DNA from: Chiloscyllium plagiosum
Taxonomy: Eukaryota
Length of the DNA stretch: 21,753 bases
Assembly: GCF_004010195.1 (NCBI RefSeq)
Contig: NC_057719.1
Coordinates: 44,124,475 to 44,146,227, forward strand
Direction: 5' to 3'
The notes below the pieces were generated by a model that had not been told where the DNA came from, ran no database searches, and worked only from the letters and a program-made list of their open reading frames with translations. This document shows, piece by piece, positions 5,765 to 21,023 of the stretch (the first letter of the stretch is position 1; each line of letters starts with the position of its first letter). A program made the position numbers and the translations under genes.

Positions 5765-5982
5765 AGAGTGTGGGACTGGAAAAGCACAGCCGGTCAGTCA
5801 GCATTCAAGGAGCAGGAGAGTCGAGGTTTCAAGCATTAGCCCTTCAAAAGGAAGACCTCATTCCTGATGAAGAGCTTATGCTCAAAATGTCGATTTTCCT
5901 GCTCCTCAAATGCTGCCTGACCTGCTGTGCTTTTCAGTGCCACACTCTCGACTCTGATCTCCAGCAGTTCCACTTTCGCCTA
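5765..5982. mobile_element. Penelope-derived palindromic element (inverted pLTR pair) with decayed hammerhead core
   Basis: Arms ~5765-5853 and ~5861-5948 are reverse complements (GAAAAGCACAGC / GCTGTGCTTTTC; GGAGCAGG / CCTGCTCC). CTGATGA at 5864-5870 is followed by AGAGCTTATGCTCAAAATGTC. Confidence 0.8.
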
Positions 5983-10574: not shown

Positions 10575-10898
10575 GGGCGGCACGGTGGCACAGTGGTTAG
10601 CACTGCTGCCACAGCGTCAGAGACCCGGGTTCAATTCCCGCCTCAGGCGACTGACTGTATGGAGTTTGCACGTTCTCACCGTGTCTGCGTGGGTTTCCTC
10701 CGGGTGCTCCGGTTTACTCCCACAGCCACAAAGATGTGCAGGGTCAGGTGAATTGGCCATGCTAAATTGCCCGTAGTGTTAGGTAAGGGGTAAATGTAGG
10801 GGTATGGGTGGGTTTCGCTTCGGCGGGTCGGTGTGGACTTGTTGGGCCGAAGGGCCTGTTTCCACACTGTAATCTAATCTAATCTAAAAAAAATCTAA
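10575..10898 (+). mobile_element. HE1-type V-SINE, young, inserted in CR1 RT
   Basis: GGGCGGCACGGTGGCACAGTGGTTAGC A box, GGTTCAATTCC B box, V domain, (AATCT)n tail; CpGs retained. Interrupts LTNLI|FEEVT. Confidence 0.93.
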
Positions 10899-11225: not shown

Positions 11226-11543
11226 TTTTGGGTGGCACAGTGGTTAGCACTGCTGCCTCACAGCGCCGGAGACTCGGGTTCAATTCCCGCCTCAGGCGAC
11301 TGACTGTGTGGAGTTTGCACGTTCTCCCCGTGTCTGCGTGGGTTTCCTCCGGGTGCTCCGGTTTCTTCCCACAGTCCAAAGATGTGCAGATCAGGTGAAT
11401 TGGCCATGCTAAATTGCACGTAGTGTTAGGTAAATGGTAAATGTAGGGGTATGGGTGGGTTGCGCTTCGGCGGGTCGGTGTGGACATATTGGGCCAAAGG
11501 GCCTGTTTCCACACTGTAATGTAATGTAATCTAATCTAATCTA
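11226..11543 (+). mobile_element. HE1-type V-SINE, young, inserted in the CR1 RT FADD motif
   Basis: Same subfamily as 10575-10898. ATG duplicated at 11223-11225 and 11544-11546; removal restores TTT GCA GAT GAC ACC AAA. Confidence 0.93.
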
Positions 11544-13514: not shown

Positions 13515-14356
13515 AAGCATGAGCAATTGAATCAATATAATCTAAATAAAAAGCAGCCTCGCAGTGACAGATTACAGCTCATGCTCACATTGTGCAAGTC
13601 CCAGTATCAGACCCCACCATCATCTGAAAGTGTTCCCCTTTTACAACTTTCTAGGTTTGACACAAAATCATCAGATACAGTATTATGTGTTAAATGGAGA
13701 AGCAGATCTCAGGGAAAGAAATATCTTGTAAGTAACATTTTGTCCAATAAAAAGGCAGTTCTTTATGGTTAATATGATGCAACATTGAAGGCAGACATGA
13801 GGAAAGCCATGACTCGGTTGTGTCTTACCTTGCCTGAGAGGAAAGTGACGAAACATGGGAGGAACACTGGTTAATTTGTAAATAGCTAATGACTTCCACT
13901 TTTATGCTCAATTTTATTTTTCTTCATTTGAAAAAATGAATCATAAATGATACACTATGGATTCAGATGCAATATGTACAATGTGCAAAAGTTCAGATCA
14001 TTCTCATTACGTAAAAAAATTCATTTGGAAGTAGCAAACCAGTAACAATGTCCTCACAGACACACTAAACAGAGCTATGAGGGCATAGATTTTATTTATT
14101 AAGACAACAACAAACTAACCTTAGAGAATGTGCAAGAGGGTTGTGAATAAATGTACTCAGACAGCAAAATGTCCGCAGGTCAAAATATTAACTCTGGGGA
14201 AGGGTGTGGACCAAGAAGGGAATTTTTGAACAAAGGAATAGAAGGGAAATAGGACTGAGAAGAATGGTTGAGCCAGAATTACTTGTTGATATGCAAACAT
14301 GAACATAAAGTACAAAAAGTAAATAAACTAGATGATTTTAATGGACACATAACTAT

Positions 14357-15075
14357 TAGCAAGTTTTGAGAAAATTTGTAGCTCATGCTGGGGTTCTGGA
14401 TGTAAGTTTGCTTGCAAAGCTGGAAGGTTCATTTTTAGACATTTCATCACCATGCTAGGTAACATCACCAGTGAGCCTCCGGTGAAACACTGGTGTTATG
14501 TCCTGCTTGCAATTTGTGTGTTTCGATTTCCTTGGGTTAGTGATGTCATTTCCTGTTCTTTTTCTCAGAAGGAGGTAAATGGGATCTAAATCAATATGTT
14601 TGTTGACAGAGTTTGGTTGGAATGCCACTCTTCTAGAAATTCTCAGTGTGTCTCTGTTTGGCTTGTCCTAGGATGGATGTGTTGTCCCAGTGAAAGTGGT
14701 GTCCTTCCACATCTGTATGTAAGGATACTAGTGAGAGTTGGTCATGTCTTTTTGTGGCTGGCTGATGCTCGTGTATCCTGCTAGCTAGTTTTCTGTCTGT
14801 TTGTCCAATGTAGTGTTTGTTACAGTTTTTGCAAAGAATGTAAATGACGTTTGTTTTGCTTGTTGTCTGTATGGGTCTTTTAAGCTTGTTAGCTGCTGTT
14901 TCAGTATGTTGGTGGATTTGTGGGCGACCATGATGTCAAAAGGTGATCTAAACACATAAATAACAAGCAGGACATAACGCCAGCACTTCACTGGAGGCTC
15001 ACTGATGATGTTACCTAGCATGGTGATGAAACATCTGAAAACAAACTTTCCAACTCAGTGAGCAAATTTACATTC
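14357..15075 (-). mobile_element. Penelope-like element (Penelope/Poseidon type): GIY-YIG remnant, 3' pLTR and inverted pLTR, 12-bp TSD
   Basis: Minus strand NVIYILCKNCNKHYIGQTDRKLASRIHEH...HHFHWDNTSILG (GIY-YIG). pLTR ~14357-14530 with an inverted copy ~14945-15075. TSD ACACATAACTAT at 14345-14356 and 15076-15087. Confidence 0.92.
14991..15052 (+). ncRNA. Minimal type I hammerhead ribozyme motif in PLE pLTR
   Basis: CTGATGA (15002-15008), stem II GTTACC-TAGCAT-GGTGAT, GAAA (15028-15031), C-ATC site, stem I TCA/TGA with possible distal pairing TGGAGG/TTTCCA. Matches the known PLE minimal hammerhead layout; CpG-decay changes present. Confidence 0.7.
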
Positions 15076-15269
15076 ACACATAACTATGTTACAGCATGAA
15101 CATTAATCAGATTTTGTCTACAGCAAGAATGGAAACTAAGTGTTACCAGGCATAAAGTTTACATGGAAAGTGAAGGAAGCAAATGGCAAATTTGCAGATC
15201 CATTTTTATTCAACGTAGGGCTTGAAACAACAAGTTAGAATTTGTGTACACATCCATTTGCTTCACATC

Positions 15270-15505
15270 TCATGACATCAAAGGCTTTAAAGCACTTCAC
15301 AGACAATAAAGTACTTTTAAAAGATAATCATTTTTGTAATGAAGGGTGATGTGGTACCCCATTTATAAACAATAAGGTCTCACAAAGAAAACTGAAATAA
15401 ATGTGCTTGGTTTATTTTCATTATATTGACTAAGGGATAAATTTTGACTCAGACAATGGAACTTCTGCATTGAAGCAAAAGAGTGGACCTATTGGAATTT
15501 TCAAA
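15270..15505 (-). mobile_element. Highly degenerate Deu-domain SINE fragment
   Basis: AAAGCACTTCACAGACAATAAAGTACTTTT...TGTAATG...AGGGATAAAT is similar to 3341-3672. Confidence 0.5.
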
Positions 15506-15559
15506 ATTCTGAGGAGACTAGAAGAGAAAGATTATTTTCATTAGTTTGCAGTTTGTTTG

Positions 15560-15900
15560 TCTTTATTCTCCCATGGATGTGGACATCACCACCAAGACAG
15601 CATTTCTTGATCAGTTTTAATTACCCTTGAACTGGTTGATTTGCTATGGCAGTTAGGAGTCAATCACATTGCAGTGCATCTGGAGTCACATCGAGACCAA
15701 TTAAGGACTGCAGATTTCCACCCCTAGATGAAATTAGTGAATCAGAGGGTTTTGCAACAATCAGATTTTTCAGTAATTTCAGGTGTATTCATTTTAAGAT
15801 TTTATATTCTAGGAGCTGCTGTAGTACAATTTGCATCTGCATCCTGTAGCATTAGCCTGGGTCTCTGGATTTCAGGTCTACTGATGTTACCACTTTGTCG
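15560..15900 (-). mobile_element. tRNA-derived SINE with CR1/L2-group LINE-like tail, degenerate
   Basis: GGATGTGGACATC...GGCAGTTAGGAGTCAATCACATTGC...CTGGAGTCACAT...CATTAGCCTGGGTCTCTGGATT; related to the SINE pieces at 20340-20377 and 20936-21023. Confidence 0.65.
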
Positions 15901-16240
15901 CTGAGGAATCTGGGATTGATTAAAGACTAGAAAGTGCACAGTAATCTTTCTTCCTGTCCACAATCTGACAGAGGGATTATCATAAGAGATCACATCTATA
16001 CAATTTACATTTATTTAGCAATTATAAACAAAACACTGACACAGTGAGAGGAGGGATATGCTTTTGTAATCTCTCTTTAGTGTGATTTTTAATAATTAAA
16101 TCAGTAATACTTTTTTTCCCAGTTTTGATCTTGAACAGGTCAATTAAAAGCTTGAAGCACTGTATCGATCAAAATGTTTCCCATCACTGGTGAAGAAACA
16201 TGATGTTTTTTAATATTACATCATTTAAGATTATAATTTT

Positions 16241-16362
16241 AAAGTTTGTTTTCAGATGTTTCATCACCATGCTAGGTAACATCATCAGTGAGCCTCCAGT
16301 GAAGTGCTGGCGTTATGTCCTGCTTGTTATTTATGTGTTTAGATCACCTTTTGACATCATGG
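16241..16362 (+). repeat. 122-bp exact inverted duplicate of 14928-15049 (hammerhead motif on minus strand)
   Basis: Base-by-base comparison with the reverse complement of 14928-15049 shows no differences; the same peptide MLGNIISEPPVKCWRYVLLVIYVFRSPFDIM appears in both ORF-track entries. Confidence 0.95.
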
Positions 16363-16664
16363 CATGTTCTAAGAAGAGGCAGATTAACCTACAGGCTTTT
16401 GAACTCTTATGAGGTGCCCAGAAAAACTTCCATTCTTGGTAAAGCTCAGCATGGCGGAGATAAATGAAACTTATCTAATAACTGAAAGTAGTTTAAGTGT
16501 AACATATTTAACATGATTCATTTCATTAATACCATAACATTCTATAACAACTATCTACATTTATATAGTACTCCAGTTACAGTGAATCATCCCATGACAT
16601 TTTGCCAGAAACTTATTAAAACATAACACTAAGCCACATAAAGCATTTTTAGGAGAGCTGACCA

Positions 16665-17065
16665 AAAGCTTGATTGGTCTCTCTTCACAACTAAACCTTT
16701 CCAGTCCAGGCACATCCTGGAACATATATGACAAGCCTTTCACCCCAGAATCATTCTTGTAAACCTCTTCTGGACCCCTCCAACACCTGCACATCTTCCT
16801 TAGATATGGGACCCAAAACTACTTGCAAAATTCCAATTTATACAGCCTCAGCAATATCTCTCTGCTCTTGTGTTTGCGTCTTCACAAAATGAATGCTAAT
16901 ATTGCATTTGTCTTCCTAACTTTCATCAAATATCCCTTTCTTTGTTTATCCTGCTAAGTGCATCACCGCAGACTGATTTCTATTTGTCACTGATCAGCTC
17001 ATCTGTATTGTACTGTAATGTATGGCCTCATTATTTACCACTCCTCCAATTTTCCTATCAATCTA
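16665..17065 (-). mobile_element. Degenerate CR1 LINE RT C-terminal fragment(s)
   Basis: ATCATTCTTGTAAACCTCTTCTGGACCCCTCC...CTTCCTTAGATATGGGACCCAAAACT (rc of QFWVPYLRK..QKRFTRMI) and TGCTAATATTGCATTTG. Confidence 0.75.
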
Positions 17066-17933
17066 CTGATCGACCCTCTTATATTCAAGTCTAATATTGT
17101 TTATTACCATGAGAATACAGAAAGTAATTGCCTTTGCAAAACAGATACACAAGATTAAATTAATGCTGATATGCCTGGACATTGTTATTTGCATAACTTA
17201 CACATATTGTATTCATAATATATTACATCCATCAGGATGGAAGCAACATTGAGATAAGCAAATACTTGCATATCGCATCAGTCATAGTCCACAAGGACGA
17301 AGTGATAAACTATTACAAATTAGGAACTTGATCAAATCTCTTGGCCGTTATTGTATACAATGTGGAATTTGAACTTGGTCACAGAACAAAACAGAACGCA
17401 ACTGTTTTTAATCTGAATGAATGTTATCAGACAGTATGAACAGGATTCCGCTTCTAGAAGTTGACGCTTGCCACACAAAGACACTGGCAAACACCAAGCC
17501 CGGCAACAACCACACACACCGGGAATGGGGAATCTCAGCGGCTCCGGAGCTCAGTGCAAGGGCAGCCAAGGAAACTGGCTCATTCTAAAACTCAGCCTCC
17601 AAATCTGCCATCTTCCTACTCAAACAAGAAAATCACCAAAACCCATCCTTCAGGCACACACCCAGTAAATTGGAATCTCAACTAGGAAATCAAAAATAAA
17701 TGCTCATTATAAAATCAATGTAAACATCATATCCAATAAAATGTCAGCAACTTTAAGGCTGAACATGTTTTTTGGAGGTGATTGGAGAGAAACGTCTGCC
17801 TTGCCCTTGAGGATCACCCCTACCGAACAGTAACTTCAAACGAGTGCTTCCTGCAACTGTTGGCCGTTGGTGACAAGGTACAATCGGAGTCTGTGCACTT
17901 TCAATCTCATTGAACAGCTGAAACAGAGCTTAC

Positions 17934-18265
17934 CAACTGCGGCTGGGTTTCTCGCCGCTTCCCGGCCTCCGCTCGGTTTGGCCAGAGATCCCGCTTGCAG
18001 CTCACAGAGAGTCGATCCTGACGCCACACATCCCCCCGAACATCGGTAAAAGCTCAGGCAGGTCAGAAGAGTGGAGAGGAAAGGGGGAAAAGAACTGCTC
18101 TCCCTACTTCTGCCCGCGTTCCCTTCCGCGATCTGCCACTTGCATTGCTCAAGTGCGGCTTTTTCAACAGCTTCTGTCAGAGGAGGCGCCTCATGCTGCA
18201 TCCTCTGCGCATTAAAACGTAAGAGGTCAGGACTGAGCACTGAGCCATGTGACACTCTCCCAGAT
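17934..18265 (-). other. Candidate CpG-enriched first exon of an unidentified host gene (5' UTR and/or N-terminal coding)
   Basis: Non-repetitive, locally GC/CpG-rich. Ends at donor TTG|GTAAGC (GT at 17933-17932). Putative start at a CA dinucleotide 31 nt downstream of a TATA box. Frame open from ATG 18201 to the donor, product not recognised. Confidence 0.5.
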
Positions 18266-18354
18266 GGGCTCGTCCAAGCGAACGGTTTGCTTTATAAAAC
18301 ATCTCACAATCTCTCCAGCCTTTACCACAGACGCAAAATCAGGGCTCTGACTCA
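18266..18354 (-). promoter_or_regulatory. Candidate Pol II core promoter: TATA box and AP-1 site
   Basis: Minus-strand TATAAAG beginning 18296; TGACTCA at 18348-18354; adjacent to the CpG-rich exon candidate. Confidence 0.45.
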
Positions 18355-19543: not shown

Positions 19544-20461
19544 CTTGTCCAGCACTTCATTAACCACTTTAAACATTCAACCATCCATAAAATATGGTGT
19601 GAGAACTCCCAAAGCTTCTTCAACAACATTTCCCAAACTTGCAGCAAGAAGTTGAACACCACCACCTCCAAAACGCTCCCTGTCACACACCATCCTGGCT
19701 TTGAAATATATTGTATTCTTTCAACTATTATGTCAGAATCCTGAAAAATTCCTCCTTAACAGCATTGTAGGTATACTTAAACCACATAACATGTATCAGT
19801 TCAAGATGGCAGCTCGTCACAATCTTGCCAAGAGCATTCAGGGATAGGCAATAAATGCTGGCTTTCTCAATTATGTGAAATAATTTTTTAAAAAGGACCT
19901 TTGTACTTTCATTTATAAAATAGATGATCGTAACTGTGAGTATGATACATTTTAAGAACTATTTCCTTTCATGGGTGTGAGGACATAACATTACATTCAT
20001 TAAAAAGTCACAGGTTCAACTTCTAGCCTATTTTGAATTATCAGATAAAGCCAGGGTAATAGTAGAGTTATTACAATTAACCTCATACCCCCATAATAGA
20101 TTGTGTAATTCTGCTAATGTAAATACATGTGATTGCAGCCTCATGATTCCTACTGGAGGGTTGCATGTTCAAACATCAGGTTTTGACTGTGATGATGCTT
20201 ACGGTTAAATAGCTCATTCATAAATAATTGCCTTTTGAATAAATAAAACAGCAATGTTGCCAGTGGAATCCTATTCCCTGTAAGGAGTTAATACTTTGAA
20301 AAAAGGGAAAATATAGATATTGTAATACATTAAGGAAAGATGAAGGCCTAGTGGTACTGTCACTAGACTACAAATCCTGTGATACTGTAAAGTTCAAAAT
20401 TTGAATAACTATTCAGAGATTGAAAGCAGTAGCGATAACTCTTTCTAAAATAAATTGTTTA

Positions 20462-20936
20462 CAGAGATGAAAGGTACAAGGAGAAACTGTTATAAAGGAA
20501 TTAAAAGTGACATACTGGTTAACCATTCCTGGGAAGAAGGAGTCAAACCAACATAAACAAGCTGTTTTCTGGGAGAGAAGGTAACACTGCTTGATAATCT
20601 GCTGCCTCATGACAGATTGACAATTAAGATTGCCCGCAAAAGGAATGTCCTGAGGTAAAGGGGTTAACTGCAGGAAGATTGTGATTTCAAACAGTTAATG
20701 CCAAATGCAACAAGGAACAGGGAAGTTACAAAAACAGAAATTGCTGAAAAAGCTCAGCAGGTCAGGCAGCATCTGTGGAGAGAAATCATGAAATGCAGAT
20801 TATCAAGCAGTGTTACCTTCCCTCTCCCAGAAAACAGCTTGTTTATGTTGCTTGGACTCCTTCTTCCCAGGAATGGTTAATCAACTTATCACTTTTATTC
20901 CTTTGTAACAGTTTCGCCTTGTACTTTTCATCTCTG
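20462..20936. repeat. Inverted repeat (foldback): arms ~20462-20602 and ~20795-20936, about 90% identical; spacer holds a PLE pLTR fragment (~20728-20785)
   Basis: CAGAGATGAAAGGTACAAGG...GTAACACTGCTTGATAATCTGC vs GCAGATTATCAAGCAGTGTTAC...CCTTGTACTTTTCATCTCTG; about 12 differences by hand count. Confidence 0.9.
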
Positions 20937-21023
20937 CAATGTGGCTGACTCTTAACAATTAGGGATGGGCAATAAATGCTGGCCTAGTCAGCAATGTCCA
21001 CATCCTGTGAATGAATAAAAAAA
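20936..21023 (+). mobile_element. 3' part of tRNA-derived SINE (its likely head lies at ~20340-20377)
   Basis: GCAATGTGGCTGACTCTTAAC-AATTAGGGATGGGCAATAAATGCTGGCC...TGAATGAATAAAAAAA; head GGCCTAGTGGTACTGTCACTAGACTA. Confidence 0.7.

Follow-up and report, generated by a model that had tools for sequence, protein, structure and literature searches.

How does part of a transposable element come to lie, letter for letter and in the opposite orientation, 1.2 kb from the element itself? The question is raised by a stretch of 21,753 nucleotides of the Chiloscyllium plagiosum genome (hereafter the window), in which a first-pass annotation had described an exact inverted copy of part of a Penelope-like insertion. 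A comparison of the window with itself bore out this description: positions 16241–16362 are the reverse complement of 14928–15049, with identity at 122 of 122 bases. The correspondence is broken by a mismatch immediately outside it on both sides, the spacer between the two arms measures 1191 nt, and no other pair in the list of the window's 25 longest inverted repeats reaches 100% identity.

The Donor Element and the Copied Tract

The left arm of the pair lies within a Penelope-like insertion that occupies positions 14357–15075 on the minus strand and is composed of a GIY-YIG remnant, an inverted pLTR and a tail. We recognized this insertion by a Pfam match, by its protein relatives, by its inverted repeat and by its TSD, a 12-bp direct repeat found at 14345–14356 on the left and at 15076–15087 on the right. 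A stop-free frame on the minus strand (14645–14881) matched the Pfam GIY-YIG domain with E = 1.4e-4 and 22.5 bits, just below the cut-off of 22.6, and had 1554 relatives at E <= 0.001; RVT_1 (the reverse transcriptase domain) was detected in six of ten selected long relatives. The tail is 40 nt long (14357–14396) and present at one end only. Because a GIY-YIG frame (C-terminal in RT-bearing relatives), an inverted pLTR, a one-sided tail and a TSD make up the standard architecture of Penelope-like elements (PLEs), the donor is a canonical EN+ element truncated at its 5' end, and it is dead, with stops, a frameshift and mutated cores in its putative ribozymes. The excerpts available from published accounts of EN+ Penelope-like insertions (PMC8557442, PMC3846280) describe the same 5'-truncated GIY-YIG body, inverted pLTR, one-sided tail of 30–40 bp and TSD, as well as a minimal hammerhead, which in the pLTR of the donor is a degenerate and predicted one; against these excerpts the donor, although dead, showed no notable difference.

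The donor tract (14928–15049, plus strand) includes about 16 nt of the ORF body, the inversion junction (14943–14946) and about 104 nt of the inverted pLTR. In four out of 40 aligned relatives, PLE protein homology on the minus strand extends as far as 14943, and contigs of the pLTR family end no later than 16344, which corresponds to donor position 14946; the copy therefore spans the junction between the GIY-YIG body and the inverted pLTR, as had been proposed. We found no TSD in the flanks of the copy, where the longest direct repeat is only 7 nt long and lies within the copied tract, and the copy is also without a tail, in agreement with what had been read from the sequence before.

The letters of the copy point to the neighbouring element as its source. 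The copy has no difference from the donor's inverted pLTR and 16 differences, over the 102 copied pLTR positions, from the donor's 3' pLTR. The two pLTRs of the donor are 82% alike over 137 nt, so the first-pass annotation was right in describing them as diverged from each other. At position 16311, T makes up 93–99% of the family depth in the four sequencing runs introduced below, and donor and copy both have C. At four further listed sites, 48–95% of the family depth has another letter, in contigs selected by an 88% likeness filter that favours look-alikes. All 14 family pieces listed in the interval end at the junction (16344) or before it, and the summed depth of the family drops 300- to 1000-fold across this point, from 9e4–2.6e5 at 16270–16330 to 1e2–8e2 at 16331–16391. 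Junction copies in run X2 amount to at most ~30 copy-equivalents, a depth sum that is no copy number. These depths suggest that the junction is present in no more than a few dozen copies, whereas pLTR cores number in the tens of thousands, with the proviso that near-identical copies would collapse in contigs. Since the copy has the donor's own letters together with the donor's own inversion junction, we conclude that it was derived from this locus.

The Empty Allele

The first-pass annotation had proposed a search of orthologous loci and other individuals for an empty allele and for microhomology at the breakpoints, and both were found in all four runs that we compared. These runs, out of 24 public runs listed, were compared over positions 15050–16850 as Logan contigs, which are described, in the part of the documentation available, as a 31-mer graph. 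Two of the samples belong to organism A, the closest organism to the window (zero or one differing letter per long single-copy contig), and one each to the related organisms B and C. In four of four runs, a count to be read with the reservation that the runs may not be independent of the source of the assembly, position 16242 is joined to 16360 with 117 letters skipped and with an identical set of 10 letters (TAGCATTATT) in between. The site is traversed unbroken, with the empty allele, by a contig of 880 nt in run X1 (depth 10.6) and by one of 358 nt in run X7 (depth 10.8).

The event is therefore an insertion of 117 nt at 16243–16359, an inverted copy (minus strand) of 14931–15047, combined with the deletion of 10 target bases, the flanks being collinear. 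Two letters at the left junction (AA, 16241–16242) are common to the target and to donor positions 15048–15049, and three at the right junction (TGG, 16360–16362) are common to the target and to donor positions 14928–14930. The copy had been described as 122 bp long; all 122 bases do match, but only 117 of them are new. The other five are microhomology that already existed in the target, from which 10 ancestral bases disappeared. A simple composition model puts the chance of such microhomologies at 0.18 and 0.06 for the two ends, jointly ~0.01. The collinear empty allele and a donor that is continuous between both of its 12-bp TSDs agree with the earlier statement that this is not an inversion breakpoint, and they rule out an inversion with staggered-break duplication as well.

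Between organism B and the window, ~41 of 1400 letters differ, a split of ~3%. The sequence of B includes the right end of the donor, in a contig that starts at 15054, and lacks the copy; for this reason the donor must be older than the split and the copy younger. The filled state is derived, because the outgroups B and C carry the empty allele. For a copy as old as the split from B, zero differences over 117 positions would have a probability of ~0.03, and the same count caps the divergence between donor and copy at 2.5% (95%). The copy is thus derived, younger than the species split of ~3%, and unfixed.

A few other irregularities were seen in the compared interval. The joints 15340 to 16249, 15676 to 15850 and 15753 to 15850, with sides of 21–22 letters, were discarded as repeat-derived. 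One-letter differences from the window at 15215 in run X1 and at 15581 in run X2, and small insertions near 15745–15749 in extra contigs, are likely alleles or repeat copies.

The Filled Allele

No contig with the filled allele was present among those listed for the four runs. In run X2, the empty allele lies on a contig that runs as far as 16389, and the contig that follows has its first base exactly at 16360, so that the two overlap by 30 nt. As the contigs are built on 31-mers, this overlap indicates a fork of the graph at 16360, which is the first base common to the filled and the empty alleles and a point where X1 and X7 are unbroken. The remaining breaks of X2 fall in high-depth repeats, and the fork at 16360 lies in otherwise unique sequence. 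There was no fork at the left breakpoint in X2, though a heterozygote should give one; the left branch enters a repeat of very high depth, and it is plausible that it was pruned by graph cleaning. The fork suggests that sample S2, the source of run X2, carries both alleles, and the insertion is most likely a real segregating allele.

Hammerhead Motifs

A pattern search predicted a degenerate minimal hammerhead motif in the inverted pLTR of the donor at 15002–15035 (plus strand), with an expected cut at 15035/15036, within the copied tract. The copied motif is found at 16255–16288 (minus strand), and a further one, with a mutated core (CTGGTGA), at 14438–14471 (minus strand) in the 3' pLTR. The core motifs and helix II of the donor motif match our custom pattern, with a G-U as the first pair of helix II and with the 15.2–16.2 palindrome broken; relative to the minimal PLE hammerhead architecture given in the accessible part of PMC4209133, this predicted motif is degenerate. 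Rfam returned no matches at E <= 1, and thus no hammerhead, between 13.5 and 17.5 kb, and a search of 14940–15090 gave seven unrelated sub-threshold matches and no hammerhead. RNA folds of the motif in four donor stretches were no better than those of shuffles (z-scores of -0.2 to -1.4).

The copied hammerhead is best read as a passenger, and junction and hammerhead alike mark the donor without being the cause of the event. One or other of the two donor cores detected would fall in about 2% of random 117-nt tracts within 5 kb, but as it was this very content that led to the choice of the finding, the figure is no evidence of targeting. A hammerhead-cleaved RNA was considered as the template and rejected, as the expected cut site falls inside the copied tract. 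We also rejected a new dimeric hammerhead on the minus strand made up of the copy and the 3' pLTR: the halves of helix III are complementary, but the core in the pLTR is mutated, helix I mispairs and the two parts are 1.8 kb apart.

Origin of the Insertion

The empty allele, the microhomology and the collinear flanks support the earlier proposal of recent copying from the locus 1.2 kb away instead of an independent transposition. In our view, the insertion was probably templated locally on DNA: a recent and non-fixed inverted insertion that arose when, in the course of replication or of the repair of a break, synthesis switched template through microhomology. A break or stalled fork at 16242 (or, on the opposite strand, at 16360) would offer a free 3' end, which would anneal through two or three bases to single-stranded DNA of the donor on the same chromatid, bared by resection or by fork uncoupling. 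A polymerase would then copy 117 nt in reverse, and the extended end would rejoin the target through the second microhomology, with the loss of 10 bases. In four-point notation, the event would have the order 3-2-1-4 and a range of 1.2 kb, with point 1 at 16242, point 2 at 15047, point 3 at 14931 and point 4 at 16360 (10 ancestral bases on). Candidate enzymologies, which are indistinguishable here, include Pol theta end joining, Pol delta fold-back followed by end joining, and fork stalling and template switching, and the Penelope junction with its hammerhead would simply have been present at the landing place. Some weight is taken from this reading by the shortness of the microhomologies (2–3 nt) and by the AT-richness of the site.

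The left flank of the break (16200–16242) is AT-rich and has a 7-bp inverted repeat (16200–16224) as well as an 18-nt quasi-palindrome (16225–16242) that ends at the breakpoint. A hairpin-prone target was nevertheless rejected: the 43 nt of this flank have a folding energy of -3.5 kcal/mol, a value matched by 178 of 2000 shuffles and by 5 of 20 windows of like composition, which is not significant.

Junctions by themselves cannot tell a DNA template from an RNA template. Repair templated by RNA in cis, in which the nicked or broken end would start synthesis on a nascent transcript crossing the donor, with Penelope, LINE or Pol theta as the reverse transcriptase, would likewise yield an inverted copy when priming takes place on the transcript of the same locus. 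We regard this explanation as improbable, and as slightly less probable still the more specific form in which an ATT-rich nick served as the primer for Penelope endonuclease/RT, or for Pol theta, to write the insert from a nascent transcript still tethered 1.2 kb away. According to the available part of PMC11167929, a PLE protein cleaves ATT-rich DNA on both strands and begins reverse transcription internally. The 10 lost target bases do contain ATT twice, but of 1469 ten-base windows taken from the flanks, 640 have ATT on one strand or the other. A CpG-rich interval at 17801–18300, with a splice-donor motif on the minus strand, hints at transcription; however, no host gene was detected, and a Pfam scan of 93 of the 137 stop-free frames matched only three frames, of LINE endonuclease/RT, and none of the other 90. 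Class 2 TSIPs were proposed to be RNA-derived (PMC5110952, as excerpted). Short local inverted duplications like the present one are described for humans, in the part of PMC4617611 at hand, as not usually connected with retrotransposition. The copy itself is devoid of TSD and tail and stops 26–28 nt before the pLTR end that the donor used, and the hammerhead cut site lies 12–14 nt inside it, which means that it does not end at a cleaved RNA end. If writing from RNA in cis were true, it could point to an RT-driven route for local inverted duplications in PLE-rich genomes, seen here while the allele still segregates.

An independent retrotransposition seems to us the least likely origin, whether the mobile unit was a short Penelope subfamily bearing the junction or a donor transcript acting in trans, with a chance landing 1.2 kb away. 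The pLTR family is indeed enormous, with a summed depth of up to 2.6e5 against 3–17 for single-copy DNA, and PLE insertions without TSDs exist (PMC3846280, in the portion available), but such an origin is hard to reconcile with an exact match to the neighbour that includes its rare letters, when 14 of 14 listed family pieces end at the junction. Moreover, the target lost 10 nt where a duplication would be expected, the normal 3' end is absent (the copy ends at donor 15047–15049, the pLTR ends at 15075 and the family contigs continue beyond), and a chance landing ~1 kb from the source would happen, by our estimate, about once in a million in a gigabase genome. An artefact of assembly or library private to this assembly, such as a chimeric molecule, gap filling or a polishing error, has in our opinion as small a chance as RNA-templated repair. 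It would account for the perfect identity of copy and donor and for an empty allele in four of four runs with the filled one in none among the contigs listed. It would not account for the X2 fork placed exactly at 16360, a point at which the sequence is otherwise unique and the contigs of X1 and X7 run on, nor for two clean junctions with a 10-base loss; homology of 2–3 nt is too short for a graph mis-join, and a chimera, we reason, would need two switches and would then have to win the consensus.

Comparison with Known Systems

The event is a further instance of a structural variant class already described, probably an ordinary slip of DNA repair or replication. In the 1000 Genomes phase 3 data, inverted duplications account for 54% of 229 resolved human inversion sites; nearly all are shorter than 1 kb, are inserted at most 5 kb from the other copy and are not usually linked to retrotransposition (PMC4617611, from the part available). 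The copy resembles this 'Inverted Dup' class in being an inverted duplicate below 1 kb (117 new nt) with its source intact within 5 kb (1191 nt), in having an empty allele with collinear flanks in four of four runs, and in being polymorphic and free of retrotransposition marks. It differs in that the genome is non-mammalian and the tract happens to hold a Penelope junction and a hammerhead. The portion of that paper used here gives no figures for breakpoint microhomology, and the comparison leaves this feature aside.

The orders 3-2-1-4 and 1-4-3-2 are, in the accessible part of PMC7954356, the two majority orders of four-point template switches and can arise within or between strands. Our case shares with such switches the reverse-complemented fragment, the return near the point of departure and the perfect inverted repeat, but the surveyed range was tens to hundreds of nucleotides, against ~1.2 kb here. 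Class 2 TSIPs, as described in the excerpt of PMC5110952, likewise combine the absence of TSD and poly(A) with a microdeletion (10 nt here), junction microhomology and an intact donor, and the experimental inserts of 73–414 bp are comparable to our 117 nt; their donors, however, are distant, whereas ours is 1.2 kb away. At yeast DSBs, the resected end folds back, is extended by a polymerase and is captured by the other end via 0–5 nt of microhomology (PMC11724301, in part). Fold-back synthesis and microhomology end joining are common to those insertions and to the event proposed here, though they measure 5–34 bp with a 41-nt loop, against 117 nt with a 1.2-kb loop. When the literature was searched for such events in connection with sharks or Penelope, the nine of 11 entries listed, as titles and abstract openings, included none of direct relevance, which is weak evidence of absence.

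At this locus a known class of mutation is seen outside mammals, cleanly and resolved to the base, and outgroups fix the direction of the change. The case also shows that what looks like a short Penelope copy carrying a hammerhead need not come from retrotransposition, which calls for caution in counts of solo pLTRs and ribozymes. The perfect 122-bp inverted repeat around 1.2 kb is a possible substrate for a later inversion. Such inserts would gain greater weight only if they proved to be biased genome-wide toward transcribed or Penelope donors.

Neighbouring Observations

The interval 17801–18300 is CpG-rich and GC-rich and lies outside the SINE copies, and splice-donor motifs occur on the minus strand at 17933 and at 13828; a gene transcribed leftward across donor and copy may have its first exon here, although the Pfam scan gave no support for one. 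Inverted arms at 20459–20602 and 20795–20939 (83, 47 and 30 nt, 88–97% complementary) surround ~190 nt and are possibly a fold-back element. A 75-nt near-perfect hairpin at 5779–5935 (81%, 7-nt spacer), with a hammerhead-like centre, probably represents the fold-back stub of a different Penelope-like family. Finally, two SINE-like copies at 10584–10887 and 11231–11534, ~94% identical and 647 nt apart, lie within a LINE remnant that has endonuclease and RT frames.
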